Source of the DNA: Klebsiella phage iPHaGe-KPN-11i
Sequence record: OR637327.1
Strand: one strand, 5' to 3'
DNA: 64,000 nucleotides
This document shows positions 9,608 through 36,051 of this stretch, piece after piece; position 1 is the stretch's first letter; each line of letters opens with the position of its first letter. The notes beneath the pieces are model-generated. The model did no database searches, was not told where the DNA came from, and was given only the letters and a program-made list of their open reading frames with translations. Position numbers and translations under genes: made by a program.

Positions 9608-9810
9608 TGCAGCACGAAATCAAAACAGAGATTGACAAACGCACCTTCCTGGAAAAGAATAAAACGGTAACGCTGATGCATTACTCCACCAAAAACGGTT
9701 CGAGTGAGTTCTGGCGCGTTAACATTGACAGCAAAGAGAAACACCAGTCGATACCGTTCGACAATGAAAGCCTTGCTCGCGCTGTCTTCCAATCCCACGT
9801 TAAATTTTGA
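9604..9810 (+). CDS. hypothetical protein (68 aa)
   Basis: ORF, ATGA-coupled. Confidence 0.4.
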   Translation: MMQHEIKTEIDKRTFLEKNKTVTLMHYSTKNGSSEFWRVNIDSKEKHQSIPFDNESLARAVFQSHVKF

Positions 9811-9820
9811 GAATTATATT

Positions 9821-10972
9821 ATGAAATCTGTCGATATCGTTACCAGCATCAAAGCGCCGTCCCTGTTCATCTATCAACACGGCAATATGCGCTTCGCTCG
9901 CTCGAAGTTCTACAACTATAATTTCAACGTTGATACTGGTGAATTCGCTCGCTGGGGTGCAACATATTCCCACGATCCAGAATACGCACCATTCCCCGAA
10001 ATTCTCGATATCGAGATCACTACCAAATGCAACGGGCCAGCGGGTAAACTCTGCGGGTTCTGCTACAAGTCCAATAACCCGAACGGGTTCAACATGGATC
10101 TTGCCAACTTCAAAAAAATCATCGACAAAATGCCCTGGCTTACTCAATGCGCACTCGGTGCTGATGCACAGGGGCAAACAAACCCCGATATGTTCGATAT
10201 GATGGCGTATGCGCGTTCTAAAGGCATTGTGCCGAACCTTACCATTGCTGACGTATCAAAAGACGTTGCAGCGCGTTTAGCGGCGGTTGCTGGGGCTGTT
10301 GCGGTATCGGTTTATAAACACGCTGGTTTTGATGTCGCTTTCGACTCAGTAGCGAACCTGACAGAAGCCGGACAACAGCAAATCAACCTTCACTTCATGG
10401 TTAGCTCGAAAACCTATGATGATGCGTTTAACGTGGTTGACGCTGTGAAGAATGATCCGCGCCTGAAACAAGTAAACGCGATCGTGTTCCTGGGACTGAA
10501 ACAAAAGGGACGCGGTAAGAACTGGGACACAGTTACCCGCGAACAATATAAAAAACTTGTTGAATATTGCCTCGATTCTGGTGTAGGATTTGGATTCGAT
10601 AGCTGTTCAGCCCCCGCTTTCGTTGAAGCGATGGAGGGACACCCGAACTTCGAACAGTACAAGCAATACGCCGAAGACTGTGAAGCGACGATGTTTAGCT
10701 CTTACATCAATGAACGTGGTCAGTTCTTCCCTTGCTCGTTTACCGAACGCTGGGTTGAAGGTGGCTGGGAAGAAGGTCTGGATGTTCTGGAAGCCGAAGA
10801 TTTTGTGAAGGATATCTGGGAACACCCGAAAACAAAACAGTTCCGTAAAGAATTGACGGGCAACAAGGATCATAACGGTTGTCGTAACTGTCCGGCTTAT
10901 GCGGTATGTGGTAAAGATATGCGCGTACACAAAGCCCCTGAAACCGATGTATATGCAGTGGAGTTGAAATAA
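9821..10972 (+). CDS. Cys-rich putative Fe-S enzyme (radical-SAM/SPASM-like)
   Basis: N-terminal CNGPAGKLCGFCY (Cx8Cx2C) and C-terminal clusters CSAPAF...FPCSF...NGCRNCPAYAVCG. Non-canonical, so the assignment is tentative. Confidence 0.4.
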   Translation: MKSVDIVTSIKAPSLFIYQHGNMRFARSKFYNYNFNVDTGEFARWGATYSHDPEYAPFPEILDIEITTKCNGPAGKLCGFCYKSNNPNGFNMDLANFKKIIDKMPWLTQCALGADAQGQTNPDMFDMMAYARSKGIVPNLTIADVSKDVAARLAAVAGAVAVSVYKHAGFDVAFDSVANLTEAGQQQINLHFMVSSKTYDDAFNVVDAVKNDPRLKQVNAIVFLGLKQKGRGKNWDTVTREQYKKLVEYCLDSGVGFGFDSCSAPAFVEAMEGHPNFEQYKQYAEDCEATMFSSYINERGQFFPCSFTERWVEGGWEEGLDVLEAEDFVKDIWEHPKTKQFRKELTGNKDHNGCRNCPAYAVCGKDMRVHKAPETDVYAVELK

Positions 10973-27730: not shown

Positions 27731-27990
27731 TGACTGATGTTATTTTGAAAGTTAAAGATGTTGTACTGGGCGATACCAAAAACCCAGACGCGGTTACACT
27801 GGAACAGGCTGTTGTTCAGATCATGCGCGATAGCCTCCGCCTGGAAGTTACTGAACGCACCGAAAGCAATTACACGGGCGGAATTGATGGTCGCCAGTTG
27901 TACGAAGATAACAAACACGTTAATGTAACCCTATGGGCGGACATTGACGAAAACTCATACAAAATTGACGAGATTGATTTTGACGTATGA
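27721..27990 (+). CDS. hypothetical protein (89 aa)
   Basis: ORF, coupled. Confidence 0.45.
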   Translation: MALMTDVILKVKDVVLGDTKNPDAVTLEQAVVQIMRDSLRLEVTERTESNYTGGIDGRQLYEDNKHVNVTLWADIDENSYKIDEIDFDV

Positions 27991-28910
27991 AAATAATTGA
28001 CCTCTGTGCTGGTGTGGGCGGGGTTCGATTAGGATTTGATAAGGCATTCGGCGGTGTCGAATGCCTTTTAACGTCTGAAATCGACAAGTTCGCACAGCAA
28101 ACATATATCGAAAACTGGGGCGATGATAACCTACAGGGTGATCTATTCGCCATTGATGAAAACAAAGTGCCGGATCATGATATCCTGCTGGCGGGGTTCC
28201 CGTGTCAGGCGTTCAGTAAAGCCGGATTGAAACTGGGCTTTGACGATGTGCGCGGTACGGTGTTCTTTGAAATCCTCCGCATTATACGCGCTAAAAAGCC
28301 CCGTGTACTGTTCTTTGAGAACGTGCCTGAACTGCTAACCCATGACAAGGGGAAGACGTTTAAAACGATTTACGGGCTTCTGGAGGCCGAAGGATATAAC
28401 GTATTCTATCAACGCCTGAACACAAAGGATTTCGGACTACCCCAAAGACGGGAACGCGTGTTTATTGTCTGCTTCCTGGATGATGTATTCTTTTCGTTTC
28501 CGGTTCCCCCGCGTACCCCTACACGCGTAGGCGACATCCTCGAAGATGCTGATGATTCATTCACCCTCTCAGATAACGCATGGAAAGGCTTTAGAGAGCG
28601 TAAGGAACGAAATAAGGCAAACGGTAAGGGTTTCGGTTATCAGGCCGTCACAAGCGATTCTGCGCACACTGGGACTATCACTGCAAATTACTATAAAGAT
28701 GGTGTTCAATGTCTGGTATTGCAGGAAGGAAAGAACCCCCGAAGACTTACTCCCCGTGAGTGTTTTCGTTTGCAGGGTTTCCCAGATTCGTTTATTATCA
28801 ACAAAAGCAAGATGCAAGCGTATAAACAAGCAGGTAATTCTGTTTCAATACCAGTCATCGAGGCTATAGCAAAACAAATCAAGAAGGTGTTATGTCACAC
28901 AACGGACTAA
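27987..28910 (+). CDS. DNA (cytosine-5)-methyltransferase
   Basis: Motif I DLCAGVGG, motif IV GFPCQAFS, motif VI ENV. The C-terminal target-recognition region ends ...QAGNSV. Confidence 0.8.
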   Translation: MKIIDLCAGVGGVRLGFDKAFGGVECLLTSEIDKFAQQTYIENWGDDNLQGDLFAIDENKVPDHDILLAGFPCQAFSKAGLKLGFDDVRGTVFFEILRIIRAKKPRVLFFENVPELLTHDKGKTFKTIYGLLEAEGYNVFYQRLNTKDFGLPQRRERVFIVCFLDDVFFSFPVPPRTPTRVGDILEDADDSFTLSDNAWKGFRERKERNKANGKGFGYQAVTSDSAHTGTITANYYKDGVQCLVLQEGKNPRRLTPRECFRLQGFPDSFIINKSKMQAYKQAGNSVSIPVIEAIAKQIKKVLCHTTD

Positions 28911-29428
28911 GAACAATCGAAGAAGAACAGAAAGGAATTGACGAATTCCTTAAAACTGTTTCTGTTGATATACAAACGGGGACAATTATACGAACGTCAC
29001 ACAAACGTTCTGACTTGATCGGAAAGGAAATAGGTTCGAAGATTAAAGGAGGATATACCCGCGTTTATTTCAAAAGCAAAGGATATCTACGTCATCGAAT
29101 CATCTACTACGTTGCAACCGGAAAACTGCCTGATGTGATTGATCACAAAAATGGTGTTGAGGCTGGCGACGGGATTTATAACTTGCGTGAAGCGGATCAA
29201 TCCCGAAACTGTCAGAACCGGACTAAACGAAGAGTAGCAACCAGTCGATTCAAGGGTGTATGTGTACGTGATCAACCTACTGGAATACGTTACATTGCAC
29301 AGATAAAGATTGACGGCAAGGTTAAACATATCGGTTCCTATCGTGACGAATACGAGGCTGCAAAAGCATACGATCGGGAAGCGATAAAACATTTTGGTAA
29401 ATTTGCAAAATTAAACATTGCATACTGA
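28892..29428 (+). CDS. HNH homing endonuclease with AP2 domain
   Basis: HRIIYYV...DHKNG HNH core and an AP2-like FKGVCVRDQPTGIRYIAQIKIDGKVKHIGSYRDEYEAA. Confidence 0.7.
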   Translation: MSHNGLRTIEEEQKGIDEFLKTVSVDIQTGTIIRTSHKRSDLIGKEIGSKIKGGYTRVYFKSKGYLRHRIIYYVATGKLPDVIDHKNGVEAGDGIYNLREADQSRNCQNRTKRRVATSRFKGVCVRDQPTGIRYIAQIKIDGKVKHIGSYRDEYEAAKAYDREAIKHFGKFAKLNIAY

Positions 29429-29802: not shown

Positions 29803-30075
29803 ATGATTTACACTGTTGAATGTTTGGTTGATTATGAACCTTGTAATCTGATCTGCGCGTCTGATACCGTTATGGACTGCATCGACGCGGTGAACAATCA
29901 CGAAACCTTCCCGTATGTTGCGGATAATCTGCATTTCACTGCGTGGAAAGACGGCAAGAAAGTTGCGGTTGCTTCTTTAGTAGGAAACAGAGTAGGCGAT
30001 ACAATAGGCGCTAACGGTTATGAACCGAACCCTGTGACCTATGAAGAAGTCATTGGTAAAATGGAGGCGGTATGA
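29803..30075 (+). CDS. hypothetical protein (90 aa)
   Basis: ORF. Confidence 0.5.
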   Translation: MIYTVECLVDYEPCNLICASDTVMDCIDAVNNHETFPYVADNLHFTAWKDGKKVAVASLVGNRVGDTIGANGYEPNPVTYEEVIGKMEAV

Positions 30076-30314
30076 AGGTTAAAAACGCCGAACGCGGGGA
30101 GAATACCAACGAAATGTTCTTCATTCGTTGCAACCGTAAGCCTCTCAAATGCGGGTATGACGACATAGACGAAGCCCTGAGCAAGTTTAACGAAATCATC
30201 CGTTCATCCGTCTACCGTAGCGGGGAACATCCTGGCGACCTGTGGGAACTGGTAGCAAAAGATCCTTACAGTAACATCGTCCTGAAATCCGAAACAAAGG
30301 GTAAAGTATCATGA
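30072..30314 (+). CDS. hypothetical protein (80 aa)
   Basis: ORF, ATGA-coupled. Confidence 0.5.
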   Translation: MKVKNAERGENTNEMFFIRCNRKPLKCGYDDIDEALSKFNEIIRSSVYRSGEHPGDLWELVAKDPYSNIVLKSETKGKVS

Positions 30315-30544
30315 AAATTTATACTGTTGAAAGTTTAAGCGAAGATTACTATACATTTAGTGATTTGGTTGGTTCTACCGTATCGCTGGAACGTGCGATT
30401 GAAATGGCTAAACCTTTTGACTGGGTGAGTATCACTGAATGCGACGGCTTTACTGGCGAACGTCTGCGCATAGTAACACTGAGCAACGAAAAAGCCGTTG
30501 CGAACGCAACCAAAGAAAACTTACAATTTGAGGATGTAAAATGA
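30311..30544 (+). CDS. hypothetical protein (77 aa)
   Basis: ORF, ATGA-coupled. Confidence 0.5.
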   Translation: MKIYTVESLSEDYYTFSDLVGSTVSLERAIEMAKPFDWVSITECDGFTGERLRIVTLSNEKAVANATKENLQFEDVK

Positions 30545-31053
30545 AAATACGTTCTGGTTTTGTGAGCAACAGTTCATCAAGTAGTTTCATCGTCCGGTTC
30601 CCGAAAGATCCGACTAATATCGACAACCTGCGCGAAATGATGGGCGATTGCGTCCCTGATTGTGGTTACTACGATCCGCCGTTGACAGCGGAAGAAGTGG
30701 TCAATCACGTTCATCGTGACTTAGGCGGTCATCTGGGTAATAGCTTTGAATCGTTCTACGACGATAAACGCTATGACTGGGAAACCGAAGAAAGCGCAGA
30801 AACCCGCTACCGTTCAAACCCTCAAATTGCGCTTGCGTATGACGGGCGAGACTGGTACGATCTGGACACAGAAGAGAAAGACGCTCTGATCAAAATGTGG
30901 TTGTATGAAGAGTACAACACGAAGTATGGCAATCAGGACGGCGTGTTTATCTATGAATTCACGTACTCCGATGAATGCGGCCCGATCGGAACTCAACTGG
31001 AACATGGAAACATCTTCCGTAACCTTGAACACACATCAAAGAGTCATCACTGA
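30541..31053 (+). CDS. paralog A of the 'MKIRSGFVSNSSSSSFI' family (170 aa, acidic)
   Basis: The first 17 aa are identical to ORF 34488..34955, encoded with synonymous differences. ATGA-coupled. Confidence 0.55.
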   Translation: MKIRSGFVSNSSSSSFIVRFPKDPTNIDNLREMMGDCVPDCGYYDPPLTAEEVVNHVHRDLGGHLGNSFESFYDDKRYDWETEESAETRYRSNPQIALAYDGRDWYDLDTEEKDALIKMWLYEEYNTKYGNQDGVFIYEFTYSDECGPIGTQLEHGNIFRNLEHTSKSHH

Positions 31054-31388
31054 TGGATAAGTTAAAAACCGAAGTCTGTGTTGTTATGCCTCGCTATGCA
31101 TTAGGGGATTCGATCCCCTTTAGCCAGGATCGCCCCGCACCGTTTGATGTATTTTCTTTGCGAAAATATCTTGAACGTTTTGAACTGAACGAGTATACTC
31201 TCCAAATCGTTCGGGTATGGAATCCGGTAATGTATGCGCTTGCGTTTGACATTGCAGAATCCAAACTCACTACGATGGATGAATACGTTGAACTCCTGGC
31301 GCGTAAGTTCGGGTGTGATCGTACAGTCGAAGCAGTAAGCAATAAAGTTAACGAAATTTTAGAAAAATTCAAATACGAGAAAATTTAA
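31053..31388 (+). CDS. hypothetical protein (111 aa)
   Basis: ORF, coupled. Confidence 0.5.
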   Translation: MDKLKTEVCVVMPRYALGDSIPFSQDRPAPFDVFSLRKYLERFELNEYTLQIVRVWNPVMYALAFDIAESKLTTMDEYVELLARKFGCDRTVEAVSNKVNEILEKFKYEKI

Positions 31389-33635
31389 ATGTCAATAACA
31401 AATATCGAATTCAAAAACGCTGTATCGAAGCCAACCCCGACAAACCACGTTTTCGTGTGTGACGTATCCGGTTCAATGTATAACGAACTGCCTAAGATCC
31501 GTAAACACCTGAAAGCAAATCTGGCGAGTCTGGTTAAACAGGATGACACTGTTTCGATCCTGTACTTCTCCAGCAAAGGCGATTACGGCACGGTGTTCCG
31601 TGGTGAGAAGGTTAGCAATGTCTCTGACCTGTCTAACATCTGCGCGGCTATCGACCGTTACCTGAAACCTACTGGTTGTACTGGCTTCGTTGAGCCGTTG
31701 AATCTGGCTGCGGAAATCGCTACAGATCTGCAATCCGAAAACGGCAACCTGAACAGCCTGATCTTCCTGACAGACGGTTATGATAACTGCTGGCGTACCG
31801 ATGACATCCTGAAAGCGTGTGCGGTTCTGCCACTGACTTTCAACAGTATCGCGTTCCTGGAATACGGTTATTACGTGAATCGTCCTCTGCTGGAAAAAAT
31901 GGCAGAAGCAACCAACGCATTACACAAATTCGTTGAAGGTTTCGACGCATACGAACCAGCATTTGCCGAAATCATCACTGCGCAAACTTCTGCACGTATC
32001 GAAGTCAAAGTTGCTGACGCTACCCATGCGATCTACCTGGACGAAGGGCGCGTGTATGTCCTGAACGCTGCAAACGGTGTTGTGCTGGTTCCAGAACACA
32101 TCAAAAACATCTGGGCGCTGGGTGACAACGCGATCAATGATGTTGACGGCTTCGATCCAAACATCGCCAGTGAACAGCAAGTTCTGTATGTCGTGCTTTA
32201 TCATGCACTACACACAATGAACCCTGATCTGGCATGGAAAGTGCTTCAAAAGCTGGGTGATGTCCGTCTGATCAAAGCGTATGACAACTGCTTTACCAAA
32301 CAGGACTACTCCAACGCAAAAGACCTGATTGCACAGGCTGTTGTAGATCCGTCACAGCGTTTTGTTGATGGTATTGATTACAACATGGTTCCAGACGAAA
32401 ACGCGTTCACTCTGGTTGATGCGCTCGAACTGCTGGCACAAACTGACACAGTGATCGACCTGTCTTCTGAGCACTGGGCGTACAACCGCACAGGCCGTCA
32501 GACTGTACAGAAAGAAGATGATACACTGGATCAACTGTCTGAACAGATCGCAAACGCTGCAACCCCAGAAGAACGTAAAGCACTGGCGGCGCAAATGGTA
32601 GCGCATGAAGTATGGGTTCCGAAGTTCACCCAGACTACAACCAAAGTATCGGTTAAACATCTGGTGGGTAACAGTTCCCGTCCTAACATTTCCATCAACA
32701 CGGATCTGGAAGGGTATGTGACTATCCCAGAAAGCAAACAGAAAGAATTCGGTCTGCCGGAAAAAATCGAAACTAAGCAGGTGCGTAACTTCACCATCGT
32801 TAAAGATGGTATCGTGAACGTTAAAGTTCTGCCGCTGGAAACCGATATTCCGACACTGAAAAACCTTCGTGCTTCTGGCCTGACTATCAAGCCGCTCGAA
32901 AAAATCGGTGATGATCGTATGTCTGTTCTGGTAGACTTTACCTCTCTGCCTCTGGTTAACCGTGGCATGACTCGCGGGTTAAGCGGTAAAGAGTTCGTGA
33001 CTGATAACGTGCGTCTGGAAATCCTGAAAGGCCGTCAGAAGGTTATGAAGTTCTTCCGTGACAACGCGATCGGACTGCGCAACGCAGAAGGGCTGAAACA
33101 GCGCTTTGGTGAGGCTGCGGGTGAATGGCTGTCTGAACAGGGTATTCGTGATTACGGGTTCTCTCCGAAGGTTGAGCGCACAGAATCGACTGATGTTTAC
33201 ATGTCGAAAGAACTGAACGTGAAAATCAAGGGTGTTTCCTCCCTTCCTGCTGTAGCGGCTACCGTCGCGAAGCGTGAAGAAGGTAAGAAGAAACTGAACA
33301 ACGGCGACCTGATTATCCTGTGGGCTTACGATCAGGTGAAATCTGAACTGGATGCGCTTGACAAAGATCAGGTAGTCGAGTATCTTGATAAGCAGACAAA
33401 GGCAACGATTCAGGAAGTCCGTAAACTGAATGCCCGTTTAAGTCGCGTAATGTACGGTGTTGTAGTAGCCCATGCATGGTTCGCGGATCTGGACTTCGAA
33501 GAAACCAAAGTTTCTATCGCTGCGAAAGATATTCTTCCGAAAGAAGATAATATTCCGTCCGATTTCTGGAAAGTCTGGGAAACCACATCATTCGAATGTG
33601 AAATCGTCCTGGAAGAAAAAGAAGTCAAAATCTAA
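31389..33635 (+). CDS. von Willebrand factor A (vWA) domain protein, 748 aa
   Basis: N-terminal MIDAS motif VFVCDVSGSM (DxSxS) with downstream T and D residues. Long C-terminal extension of unknown fold. Confidence 0.6.
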   Translation: MSITNIEFKNAVSKPTPTNHVFVCDVSGSMYNELPKIRKHLKANLASLVKQDDTVSILYFSSKGDYGTVFRGEKVSNVSDLSNICAAIDRYLKPTGCTGFVEPLNLAAEIATDLQSENGNLNSLIFLTDGYDNCWRTDDILKACAVLPLTFNSIAFLEYGYYVNRPLLEKMAEATNALHKFVEGFDAYEPAFAEIITAQTSARIEVKVADATHAIYLDEGRVYVLNAANGVVLVPEHIKNIWALGDNAINDVDGFDPNIASEQQVLYVVLYHALHTMNPDLAWKVLQKLGDVRLIKAYDNCFTKQDYSNAKDLIAQAVVDPSQRFVDGIDYNMVPDENAFTLVDALELLAQTDTVIDLSSEHWAYNRTGRQTVQKEDDTLDQLSEQIANAATPEERKALAAQMVAHEVWVPKFTQTTTKVSVKHLVGNSSRPNISINTDLEGYVTIPESKQKEFGLPEKIETKQVRNFTIVKDGIVNVKVLPLETDIPTLKNLRASGLTIKPLEKIGDDRMSVLVDFTSLPLVNRGMTRGLSGKEFVTDNVRLEILKGRQKVMKFFRDNAIGLRNAEGLKQRFGEAAGEWLSEQGIRDYGFSPKVERTESTDVYMSKELNVKIKGVSSLPAVAATVAKREEGKKKLNNGDLIILWAYDQVKSELDALDKDQVVEYLDKQTKATIQEVRKLNARLSRVMYGVVVAHAWFADLDFEETKVSIAAKDILPKEDNIPSDFWKVWETTSFECEIVLEEKEVKI

Positions 33636-33676
33636 CAATGTCCGCCCCCGAAAGGGGGCATATTGAGGAAAATACT

Positions 33677-34303
33677 ATGTCACGTAACGTATTCTGGGAT
33701 GAAGTTGTAAAAGGCGATATCCTGTACCTGTCCGAACCACAAGCCTATCGTGAAAACGACGAAAAGAATCACGCATACGCGCCTATGCTGCCGGATTTCG
33801 TGGTTGTTGATGATGTATTTGTCGGTGAAAATGGCTGGCAGATCGATTTAGTCGGGTTCCCTTACAAAAAGGGTGCAATCCTTCTCGAACTGGAAGACCA
33901 TAATTTCTTCGCCCATGTTGGCAATATCGGAGATCATGGTGAATTCGGTATCGAAGATATCCGCGAAAACCCGTATGTATTCAGCAACTACTACAAGGTC
34001 GGCGGACACCTGCGCAGTGATAACAAAACTGTTCTGTATCTGGATGGTCTTCTGTCTGGAATGCATAATTTCAGCATCGAGAAGCCAGGCAACAGCGCAG
34101 AACTCTACCGCCTGTTTGAGAAGTACAATCATCAAGATGGTAAACTGTTGCCGTCAGAAATGGCTTACATTGTCAACCGTCTGATCATGGGACTACACAA
34201 AACATTCCTGATTCACTTTGACGGTGATATACAACAGGCGATGGAAACTGTGATCACCATCCTGAAAGAAAAATCACGCTGCATGGATACCCTGTCAAAA
34301 TGA
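33677..34303 (+). CDS. hypothetical protein (208 aa)
   Basis: GAGG RBS before the ATG at 33677. Confidence 0.5.
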   Translation: MSRNVFWDEVVKGDILYLSEPQAYRENDEKNHAYAPMLPDFVVVDDVFVGENGWQIDLVGFPYKKGAILLELEDHNFFAHVGNIGDHGEFGIEDIRENPYVFSNYYKVGGHLRSDNKTVLYLDGLLSGMHNFSIEKPGNSAELYRLFEKYNHQDGKLLPSEMAYIVNRLIMGLHKTFLIHFDGDIQQAMETVITILKEKSRCMDTLSK

Positions 34304-34491
34304 CTCTATTCTTTATCATTGCATTGGGTGTGTTTATTCTGGGCGCTGCGATTTCATTCATGGCGTTCGATAAGCGCGAATATCAAATGGTTGTCATTGG
34401 CCTTATCGTGGCAAGTATCCCGCTGGTGTTGTCATACAACCTGTATCATGAGAAAATCGCGGAGAACGCGAAATATGAGGCAAGACGATGA
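34300..34491 (+). CDS. small membrane protein (2 TM, 63 aa)
   Basis: Two hydrophobic helices. ATGA-coupled on both sides. Confidence 0.45.
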   Translation: MTLFFIIALGVFILGAAISFMAFDKREYQMVVIGLIVASIPLVLSYNLYHEKIAENAKYEARR

Positions 34492-34955
34492 AGATCCGTT
34501 CTGGGTTCGTGAGCAATAGCTCAAGCAGTAGTTTTATCATCGGGGTCGGACTTGTCCGCCCTGGTAAAGAAAAAGAAGTGGCGGCGATTTACGGCGAAAA
34601 CAACATTGAATCGCTGATGGATATGTTTGATGATACTCGTCCTCGCTGGGATTTACCTCAAATACACGATGACGGCACAATCACACTGGAAGCGTTCGGA
34701 TGTAATAGCGTAGAAATAACCCGCATCTGGGACAAGTTGAAAGAACTGAATCTGGATGATGTTAAAATCGTTCACTTCAATGAGCGCGGCGACGAACCGG
34801 AATACGACGATGAAACCGGAAGTTATAACTATGACTGGTATGACGACGCGGACGCATTCGGGCCGGAACTCGAAAAGAAATACAATCTCCTGAGAGATAA
34901 CCGCGAACTGTTTATTGAAGGTGATGTTCGTTGCGGTGGTGGTTATGACGGCTAA
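34488..34955 (+). CDS. paralog B of the 'MKIRSGFVSNSSSSSFI' family (155 aa, acidic)
   Basis: Shares the N-terminal 17 aa with ORF 30541..31053. The remainder is diverged and rich in acidic and aromatic residues. Confidence 0.55.
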   Translation: MKIRSGFVSNSSSSSFIIGVGLVRPGKEKEVAAIYGENNIESLMDMFDDTRPRWDLPQIHDDGTITLEAFGCNSVEITRIWDKLKELNLDDVKIVHFNERGDEPEYDDETGSYNYDWYDDADAFGPELEKKYNLLRDNRELFIEGDVRCGGGYDG

Positions 34956-35088
34956 ACGATTGGTGATCTGTTACCGCTGTTTGCATGTGTATGATCACAA
35001 CACAGCGAAGCGAACAGCAACAAAGCGCTTGCGCGTTAAAGAGGCGGAATGTCCTCTCTGTAAATGTAAAATCTGTTTGGGGTAATCC

Positions 35089-35379
35089 ATGATAACGATA
35101 GTATACTGGGAAGAACTGGAAAGCGAATTCAGTGATGAAGCTGGAGAAATGGCTGCTGTAGCGGGTGAATCTGAAATGCTTACAGCTACCGAAAGTATGG
35201 ATGATGCATTTGATCGCATCAAGAAACACCAGAAAGAAAACGAAGGTCGGGATATTCAGTACATGCTATCGTTCTGGCTGGATGGTGAAATCTTCTGTCA
35301 TGCTGCTATTGCTGAGGATACTCCGGTCGATATGTGTCGTGAAGAAATCGTGAAGTACGTCAAATCTTTTATGCATTAA
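35089..35379 (+). CDS. hypothetical acidic protein (96 aa)
   Basis: ORF. Confidence 0.45.
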   Translation: MITIVYWEELESEFSDEAGEMAAVAGESEMLTATESMDDAFDRIKKHQKENEGRDIQYMLSFWLDGEIFCHAAIAEDTPVDMCREEIVKYVKSFMH

Positions 35380-35397
35380 TTAAATGAGAATTGAAAA

Positions 35398-36051
35398 ATG
35401 GCTTATGTATCTAAAAAAATTGAAATAATTTCGTCGATGATGGGTAAAACCCTGGAAGAGATCGACCGGATTGGGAAGAACTTTAAAGATGAAGTTTTCC
35501 GTTTACCTGAACGTGAAATAAATTTAATCCCGCATTTCAACACGGTTAAAATTCTGATCGATCCTGGTTTTGGATTGACGGCAACTCATTACATTGTCGG
35601 TAATGTCCCGTATATGTTCGTGTTCAGAAAATCTAAGCTGATTGCGTATTTCGATCGCGCTAATCTTGGACACATTCGGGCAATCATCGACCGGATCGAC
35701 CGTTATGAAGTCGGGAATTACACGGAACAAACCAGACGCACTACATACGGAAAGATTACGAGTATGCTGGAACAAACCAAACAATTCGACGGAGCTAACA
35801 TCGAATTGATTGATGACCTGCTAAAAAGAATCAACAAGTTCAAAGAAGCGTTTGACGTAAAGAAAACTGTGATTGCTGAACCAGAAACGGTGAAAGCACC
35901 AACCCTGTCATCTTTCGAAGAACCAGAAACCATTCCAGTAAACACAGCGTTGAAATACATCATCGAAATCGAACCAACAGATCTTGATGCAACATGTAAA
36001 GCATTGAATTCTATAGGGATTAATTTCACTCTCTATAATAAATTCAGTTAA
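35398..36051 (+). CDS. hypothetical protein (217 aa)
   Basis: ORF. Confidence 0.5.
   Translation: MAYVSKKIEIISSMMGKTLEEIDRIGKNFKDEVFRLPEREINLIPHFNTVKILIDPGFGLTATHYIVGNVPYMFVFRKSKLIAYFDRANLGHIRAIIDRIDRYEVGNYTEQTRRTTYGKITSMLEQTKQFDGANIELIDDLLKRINKFKEAFDVKKTVIAEPETVKAPTLSSFEEPETIPVNTALKYIIEIEPTDLDATCKALNSIGINFTLYNKFS

Follow-up and report, generated by a model that had tools for sequence, protein, structure and literature searches.

The 64,000-nucleotide stretch of Klebsiella phage iPHaGe-KPN-11i analyzed here (OR637327.1; hereafter the window) encodes two small proteins, A (30541-31053, plus strand) and B (34488-34955, plus strand), which begin with the same 17 residues, MKIRSGFVSNSSSSSFI, together with a radical S-adenosylmethionine (SAM)/SPASM enzyme, hereafter abbreviated as rSAM, at 9704-10972 of the same strand. 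Our analysis shows that the family of proteins carrying this N-terminal motif is genetically coupled to one rSAM/SPASM subfamily; from sequence comparison, the window apparently contains the minimal version of a widespread and undescribed phage system, in which an rSAM/SPASM maturase serves N-terminally tagged substrates. We consider it fairly probable that A and B are substrates of such a maturase, which would act on their N-terminal motif, and that the cassette separating their genes, which encodes a von Willebrand factor A (vWA) domain protein, is a clade-specific insertion.

A motif family genetically coupled to one radical SAM/SPASM subfamily

The N-terminus of the family has the form M-K-x-R-x-G-F-V-S-N-S-S-S-[S/T]-S-F-[IV]-[IV] and is followed by unrelated tails of 60-370 residues. 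Loci containing it were collected by scanning for the exact pattern and filtering the matches with tblastn, and clustering of their open reading frames (ORFs) revealed one recurrent family besides the motif proteins, namely rSAM/SPASM, which is present in 24 of 29 locus groups. In the case of two loci apparently devoid of the enzyme, its gene was located on another part of the contig (L055 for L021, and L058 for L023). Reverse seeding of IMG/VR with an rSAM profile gave 243 matches, and in 67 of 79 loci obtained in this way one or more motif ORFs lie within 10 kb; of the 12 remaining loci, six come from the clade of the window, where 20 kb separate the genes. Of 266 motif ORFs, 265 share the strand of the rSAM gene, and the nearest one lies downstream of it in 56 of the 67 loci, with a median gap of about 0.5 kb. 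The usual layout consists of one rSAM gene and then a tandem array of 1-13 motif genes on the same strand, as seen at 11750-17475 of L055, a locus on a 461-kb IMG/VR contig with 13 tandem motif genes directly behind the rSAM gene. Motif genes can also be dispersed far from the enzyme, because a lone B-type gene is found about 330 kb away from this array (L021).

The same association is found among cultured phages, since the rSAM gene occurs in 174 and B in 173 of 50,697 records, with respective counts by host genus of 112 and 113 for Klebsiella, 20 and 20 for Enterobacter, 14 and 14 for Cronobacter, 11 and 11 for Citrobacter, and 9 and 9 for Escherichia. The complete genome closest to the window has exactly one rSAM and two motif genes. 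In a scan of cellular genomes, the enzyme was also found in 39 of the 80 motif loci of 8 kb that were examined. The preliminary description of this DNA, made from the sequence alone, had considered the vWA protein as the possible partner of the shared N-terminus; once the neighbors of motif N-termini are recorded, the conserved one turns out to be rSAM/SPASM, in the 24 of 29 groups mentioned above, and not vWA. The enzyme had escaped notice because in the clade of the window its gene lies 20 kb upstream. The idea of an interaction tag may hold in a broad sense with rSAM as the partner, whereas the part of it that involved the vWA protein is contradicted by the comparative data presented below.

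The members of the rSAM family have 300-420 residues, including a conserved N-terminal segment of about 45 residues ahead of the radical SAM core. The cysteine triad C109/C117/C120 is invariant in the 21 members of family alignment A6, with the spacing CX3CX2C in most of them and CX7CX2C in the clade of the window (CNGPAGKLCGFC), a few others also having insertions; additional conserved cysteines (C301, C326, C344 and C396 in the same alignment) lie in the SPASM domain. The window protein matches SPASM (PF13186) with 24.3 bits against a cut-off of 21.5, while Radical_SAM (PF04055) is above cut-off in L018 (31.5 bits) and L150 (49 bits), and the annotation of Klebsiella phage Olmo names the protein 'radical SAM superfamily protein'. 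Its start codon is uncertain (9704, 9797 or 9821), because the longest ORF, of 422 residues, has about 30-40 extra N-terminal residues with respect to its relatives and to GenBank, in which the start is equivalent to 9797; the ATG at 9821 is also possible.

The best sequence matches of rSAM in the PDB are BtrN, SuiB and SkfB. None of the named maturase families of NCBIfam is matched above cut-off, the window enzyme reaching at most 28 bits against cut-offs of 170-400, and the best matches of its homologue in Veillonella parvula are MftC (1e-26; 93.8 bits against a cut-off of 265), WgkB, PqqE and the StrB type. MftC, PqqE, WgkB and StrB are peptide and protein maturases. Because all these matches fall far below the family cut-offs, we assign the enzyme to a new subfamily of the clade that modifies peptides and proteins.

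The V. parvula homologue belongs to a chromosomal cassette (5009-7757 in L150, also in L136 and L183) with four genes on one strand, which encode a 136-residue ORF product, a motif protein of 137 residues (MKIRNGFVTNSSSTSF...), an rSAM/SPASM enzyme of 338 residues and a 302-residue ORF product. The SPASM domain of this enzyme scores 28 bits, above the Pfam cut-off; the only motif gene extends over the start of the rSAM gene, and ordinary cellular genes lie on one side. Genes resembling those of macro-domain, SIR2 and methyltransferase proteins can be recognized by eye downstream of the cassette, on which PADLOC found no match beyond a generic similarity to viperin-type rSAM proteins. The cassette could be a prophage remnant, or represent a cellular, possibly defensive, use of the module.

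Conservation and context of the N-terminal motif

A, with 170 residues and an isoelectric point (pI) of 4.66, combines the motif with a family-specific C-terminus (YSDExG...LEHGNIFRN..H..SHH), while B, with 155 residues and a pI of 4.34, belongs to a very large subfamily ending in ...YGAGRNG (CGGGYDG in the window). Codons 1-17, at 30541-30591 in A and 34488-34538 in B on the plus strand, encode the identical peptide that we propose as the recognition or modification site of rSAM/SPASM. As the preliminary description had observed, these codons have diverged at the nucleotide level: 10 of the 51 nucleotides and 8 of the 17 codons differ, all synonymously, and the difference at Ser13, TCA versus AGC, is a switch of serine codon family. 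Past residue 17, the two proteins are both acidic and give no BLASTP match to each other (best E 0.73), and the profile-profile comparison of their families with hhalign aligns residues 1-35 only. The motif is present exactly twice in the window and nowhere else in the closest complete genome. In homologues of A and B the first 16-19 residues remain unchanged even at about 30% overall identity (alignments A2 and A3), which together with the synonymous differences bears out the earlier proposal that purifying selection on the peptide, rather than recent duplication, accounts for the identity.

This pattern extends to the 343 distinct motif proteins that we collected, of median length 134 residues. 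Among the positions lying outside the search pattern, K2 is kept in 97% of the proteins, R4 in 99%, G6 in 96% and F7 in 98%; the conservation of about 100% for N10 and S11-S13 is imposed by the pattern, which requires them, and their pattern-independent support comes from their invariance in alignments A2 and A3. All six serine codons occur at each serine position of the motif, which places the selection on the peptide rather than on DNA or RNA. We had considered conservation of the 5' end at the nucleic acid level, as in a recombination cassette or a translational element, and this candidate is ruled out by the interchangeable serine codons. The tails past residue 20 fall into 110 BLAST clusters, 78 of which are singletons, and many subfamilies have conserved extreme C-termini (...GAGRNG, ...SHH, ...GGY and ...DNH).

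Regarding the abundance of the family, an exhaustive search with the B-family profile retrieved 3802 clusters at 50% identity with E<=1e-3, and 297 with E<=1e-10; among the 150 matches listed, nearly all have 130-170 residues, start with MK[ITV]RxGFVSNSSSSSF and end with ...YGAGRNG. Scanning IMG/VR for VSNSSSSSF gave 487 stretches, and the loci fetched from them lie mostly on contigs of 50-550 kb, with tandem runs of up to 10 motif genes. No motif ORF was found in 220 kb of phage DNA outside such loci, used as control, and the pattern scan of 185,579 species genomes produced only 93 stretches, mostly in metagenome-assembled contigs. When metagenomic B-type proteins were compared by tblastn with cultured phages nothing was found, and among cultured phages the motif family appears from these searches to be confined to the clade of the window.

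Existing resources hardly register these proteins. Pfam gave no significant domain, and one borderline MLLE match, in 133 motif proteins; neither it nor NCBIfam has a model for the family; and Pfam, NCBIfam and PADLOC contain no match for A, B, the proteins p111 and p221 encoded between them, or those 133 further motif proteins. The only PHROG that recognizes the motif is phrog_7397, of 'unknown function'. Several GenBank records label B as 'head-tail adaptor' after phrog_132, and this assignment was rejected after we found neither a full-length profile match nor structural similarity to adaptors. The motif is mentioned in no paper that we found, and our literature searches on motif strings, phage rSAM/SPASM systems, the proteomes of phages KP15 and KP27 and the vWA proteins of Ackermannviridae retrieved nothing relevant; like the preliminary description, we found no characterized system with this architecture.

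Several variants of the motif genes and their surroundings were observed. In the original record of Escherichia phage RB43 (AY967407.1, 92715-93891; position 6069 of L010 in the IMG/VR copy), A is truncated to 160 residues, ending in LEHGNIFP without ...RNLEHTSKSHH, and the rSAM gene is matched as two pieces under several 'hypothetical protein' features, whereas it is one piece in re-sequenced RB43 (HE858210.2); truncation and split are due either to errors of sequencing or to enzyme and substrate having decayed together in a laboratory stock. A recurrent subfamily has a CxxC segment straight after the motif (...SSF[IV]CD[VI]CGxxxSGWDM...; L018 12267, L019 12394, L020 12422, L027 11592, 12099 and 12609, L031 12406, and L036 6976), its sequence suggesting a zinc ribbon directly behind the motif. 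Two large phage contigs carry ThiF-like and ThiS-like genes, of the kind involved in ubiquitin-like activation, which follow downstream at a distance of about 6 kb from the motif array (L006/L007, 17771-18912).

The structural context of the motif was evaluated with AlphaFold2 models of two family proteins, in which residues 1-11 form the sole stretch of low confidence, while from about Ser13 onwards the motif (SSSFII...) enters the first beta strand of the fold. The models fit residues 1-11 being a flexible and accessible N-terminal peptide. The way in which the motif runs straight into strand b1 would also fit an intrinsic functional site, for instance an N-terminal hairpin binding phosphate, nucleotide or metal in combination with the extreme C-terminus; rSAM would then act in the same pathway, perhaps making a small molecule for the proteins to bind, carry or sense, and would not modify them. 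The semi-conserved C-termini of many subfamilies could indeed pack beside the N-terminus, K2, R4 and N10 together with the serines resemble an anion-binding set, and A possesses conserved D/E/H residues (YSDE, EHGN and SHH). However, up to 13 paralogs with BLAST-unrelated tails and one enzyme make a pattern of maturase and substrates rather than of ligand binders, the nearest named relatives of rSAM are peptide and protein maturases instead of small-molecule enzymes, and an invariant peptide of 16 residues beside a freely changing remainder is hard to reconcile with a composite binding site. We thus hold this alternative to be rather unlikely, if the most serious one. Self-processing of the pyruvoyl or N-terminal nucleophile (Ntn) type, known for its Ser-Ser-Phe cleavage sites, was considered for the serine run and found to be unsupported, the single BFVD match, to an AdoMet decarboxylase proenzyme, being noise (E 0.67). 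A glycyl-radical reading of the C-terminal GxG motif of B was dropped because the partner enzyme is a maturase of SPASM type and not a glycyl-radical activase.

A different function for the motif is suggested by phage T4, the internal proteins of which are hypervariable and share a short N-terminal capsid-targeting sequence (CTS) with an L/I-x-E site for the prohead protease. The window derives from a T4-type phage, A and B are small and acidic, and the combination of hypervariable small proteins with a common short N-terminal peptide is the same; the motif could then be a packaging signal like the 10-residue CTS of T4, sending diverse proteins into the head for injection. Against this, the motif does not resemble the T4 CTS in sequence and no conserved L/I-x-E site lies behind it (alignments A2, A3 and A5). 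It is spread over many unrelated large phages and tracks rSAM rather than head genes. It also occurs outside phage genomes, in the chromosomal cassette of Veillonella, where no phage structural genes were recognized among the identifiable genes of the 8-kb locus. Moreover, the genes of A and B sit in a block with nucleotide-metabolism and DNA methylase genes. No virion proteome covering A or B was found in the literature. Packaging, and with it the virion injection raised in the preliminary description, is therefore disfavored and appears to us improbable.

The vWA cassette and the layout of the window

The source phage belongs to the Pseudotevenvirus/Karamvirus group of T4-type phages, and over bases 30000-35500 its identity is 99.2% with Klebsiella phage Olmo and 96-98% with Cronobacter phage GAP161 and with many phages of Enterobacter, Citrobacter and Klebsiella. 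The six ORFs initially named in this region are all present on the plus strand where they had been placed. Between A and B lie the genes for p111 (31053-31388), a clade-specific protein of 111 residues without assigned function (phrog_7677); the vWA protein (31389-33635; 748 residues); p221 (33638-34303), a protein of 221 residues without assigned function that aligns with phrog_7309 from residue 14; and p63 (34300-34491), a hydrophobic and probably membrane protein of 63 residues (phrog_7160) with weak matches to membrane families. The overlaps of start and stop codons that had been described are confirmed, with ATGA at 30541, 34300 and 34488, so that p63 has one on each side, and TGATG at 31053. 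The true start of p221 is probably Met14 (33677), to which the GenBank start in a 98%-identical phage is equivalent; a 41-bp gap would then follow the stop codon of the vWA gene, and translational coupling is consequently less certain there than elsewhere.

The vWA protein matches Pfam VWA, VWA_2 and VWA_3 over residues 21-176, passing the thresholds narrowly (VWA_3, 28.7 bits against 27; VWA_2, 27.5 against 27; VWA, 26.0 against 23.8), and is included in phrog_2426, of unknown function. Its metal ion-dependent adhesion site (MIDAS) comprises DVSGS, with D25, S27 and S29, together with T98 and D129; none of these residues varies across 22 homologues, with identities as low as 31%, so the original recognition of an intact MIDAS holds. 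Also the absence of an adjacent AAA+ partner of MoxR type was correctly noted: the five neighboring ORFs of the operon give no ATPase match, and for the window's remaining 61 large ORFs, 25 of the 46 Pfam families found were inspected, none of them of MoxR type. By its N-terminal vWA domain and complete MIDAS the protein recalls the vWA-MoxR (AAA+) and CobT/CobS-like phage pairs, from which it differs in lacking the adjacent AAA+ partner and in having about 550 C-terminal residues of unknown fold, for which no relative was detected in the PDB or Pfam. Following the fold comparison envisaged at the outset, a profile search of the PDB matched the vWA part only, within the first 220 residues or so (ITIH1, E 6e-6); the vWA domains nearest in sequence are of the extracellular type, those of ITIH1 and calcium-channel alpha2delta.

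The proposal that the shared N-terminus serves as a tag for interaction of A and B with the vWA protein, or for their handling by it, drew on gene order and translational coupling, and the order A, p111, vWA, ..., B is indeed kept across Pseudotevenvirus, Karamvirus and Slopekvirus phages. Beyond this clade, the two elements part company. The vWA gene is found in 503 cultured-phage records against 173 for B, most of them being phages in which B was not found, and full-length relatives occur in Ackermannviridae (about 48% identity), Bacillus phage PBS1 (25%) and T4-like Rhizobium phages (23%), with no motif ORF within 6 kb of the vWA gene in representative loci of these phages. Nor does a vWA homologue lie within 10 kb in any of 26 metagenomic loci with motif genes. 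Particularly instructive is L005, a contig of T4 type with the same context as the window (thymidine kinase, NUDIX-cytidylyltransferase [NMNAT] and RlaP), which in 7.4 kb combines rSAM with four motif genes, one of A type, one of B type and two others, and lacks a vWA gene. Since these 16-18 residues form the beginning of at least 343 distinct proteins, the tails of which fall into 110 groups unrelated by BLAST, the motif is a common signal on many unrelated proteins and the link to vWA fails; we now give it very little credence. Homologues of p111, p221 and p63 are found solely in loci of the window's clade (Pseudotevenvirus, Karamvirus and Slopekvirus). On this comparative evidence, the simplest reading is that a clade-specific cassette formed by p111, vWA, p221 and p63 sits inside a once contiguous motif array, the vWA protein being most likely unrelated to the two motif proteins on either side.

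The operon from A to B lies in the same strand block as the genes for thymidine kinase, nucleotide metabolism and a C5 DNA methylase, just past which the oppositely oriented baseplate genes begin. A scan for the late promoter TATAAATA gave two matches in the 64 kb, whereas the minus strand, which carries the baseplate genes, had none, and the number of sigma-70 promoter matches in the window corresponds to chance level. The C5 cytosine DNA methyltransferase gene (27987-28910) is overlapped at its 3' end by a homing endonuclease gene of HNH/AP2 type (28892-29428); AP2 endonuclease genes are reported as absent from phage Lw1, of the same group (PMC3861415). The Pfam overview of 61 ORFs further identified in the window an Acb1 anti-CBASS phosphodiesterase (PF23474, E 4e-49), a GmrSD_N (DUF262) domain protein (E 8e-20) and a glycine-radical domain protein (PF01228, E 3e-18).

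A candidate protein maturation system in large phages

Combining these data, we propose that the N-terminal motif is the recognition site for rSAM and, most probably, also the site that is modified, so that a single maturase would place the same post-translational modification on many different protein bodies. The reaction would occur on the flexible N-terminal arm or before folding is complete. In the clade of the window the array would have been broken up, leaving the enzyme at 9704-10972 and two substrates, A and B, with the cassette between them. As candidate chemistries we consider, on a par, oxidation of serine to formylglycine, a cyclophane of the F-x-S type, an ether crosslink and epimerization; formylglycine formation of the anSME type is an attractive candidate because the target is a run of serines.

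The closest organizational parallels are the rSAM/SPASM maturases of ribosomally synthesized and post-translationally modified peptides (RiPPs), such as MftC-MftA, PqqE-PqqA, StrB/WgkB and those of sactipeptides and ranthipeptides, in which one enzyme gene likewise lies upstream of tandem genes sharing an N-terminus and varying in the remainder. Genes adjacent to the maturase, on the same strand and with a conserved recognition segment, as RiPP substrates have, are found in the relatives of our phage, whereas in the window the genes are 20 kb apart. The logic of many precursors for one enzyme is best known from prochlorosins. The phage family departs from RiPP systems in several respects: the conserved segment, which hardly varies at all, spans only about 16-18 residues at the extreme N-terminus; in place of a short core peptide, what varies is a folded protein of 60-370 residues; Cys, Trp-Lys, Glu-Tyr and Val-Tyr are missing from the motif; genes for proteases or exporters are not recurrent in the loci; and the hosts of the system are mostly large lytic phages.

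Full-length proteins are the substrates of anSME/AtsB, rSAM/SPASM enzymes that oxidize Ser or Cys of sulfatases to formylglycine at C/S-x-P/A-x-R. Here too a short, invariant and Ser-containing motif lies near the N-terminus, but C/S-x-P/A-x-R is absent from MKIRSGFVSNSSSSSF, no sulfatase domain was found in 133 motif proteins, the substrates would be arrays of unrelated proteins and no specific similarity of rSAM to anSME was detected. Another parallel is the HXS anti-phage system, in which rSAM enzymes are reported to mature the HxS repeats of an effector (PMC13128918). That system shares with the present one an rSAM acting, or proposed to act, on a Ser-containing repeat or motif of a protein in the conflict between phage and host. 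It differs in that it defends bacteria, by means of a periplasmic effector with His-x-Ser repeats, whereas the proteins studied here are mostly phage-encoded, with a single N-terminal SNSSSSS and no signal peptide.

Several observations weigh against our proposal. The evidence consists of gene coupling, which shows a functional link and not which protein modifies which. In the window itself the link depends on phyletic co-occurrence and on the relatives, since rSAM lies 20 kb from A, and the motif-seeded loci are not an unbiased sample, having been obtained by exact-pattern scan and tblastn filter. Six rSAM-seeded loci outside the clade of the window have no motif ORF within 10 kb, and an rSAM of 32% identity in a 462-kb uncultured phage (LR756500.1) has none within 20 kb; the latter enzyme may belong to a different subfamily, or its genes may be far apart as in L021/L055. 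Because AlphaFold2 places SSSFII... in the first beta strand, a modification in the second half of the motif would have to precede or accompany folding. Finally, known chemistry cannot be carried over, because the motif is devoid of Cys and of known rSAM substrate motifs.

As for the biological role, the hypervariable and often acidic nature of these small proteins, and their location in non-structural or early regions of lytic phages, suggests by analogy a function in host takeover or counter-defence. Taken further, a dedicated rSAM/SPASM might install a reactive group, or one resembling a protein-derived cofactor, on the invariant 16-residue peptide heading arrays of otherwise unrelated phage effectors (and present in a few bacterial cassettes), formylglycine and crosslinked Phe/Ser being examples of such a group, thereby producing proteins enzymatically armed for host takeover or counter-defence; we advance this tentatively, as a speculation with perhaps one chance in three.

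The analysis corrects the label 'minor tail protein' that GenBank gives to the vWA protein, as well as the label of B that is spreading in GenBank, the motif family being assigned by PHROGs either to 'unknown function' or mistakenly to 'head-tail adaptor'. If our proposal is true, there would be a widespread system of protein maturation in phages that is named in no database and comprises thousands of clusters at 50% identity; the motif system reaches T4-type and jumbo phages from many environments, with up to 13 genes per genome. The scope of rSAM/SPASM maturation, so far short peptides and a few enzymes, would grow to include whole arrays of folded viral proteins, and enzymologists would gain a clean new substrate motif. 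One enzyme and one easily synthesized peptide provide an experimental handle on genes of the phage 'dark matter', and therapeutic phages of Klebsiella, Enterobacter and Cronobacter carry the minimal version of the system, with one enzyme and two substrates.

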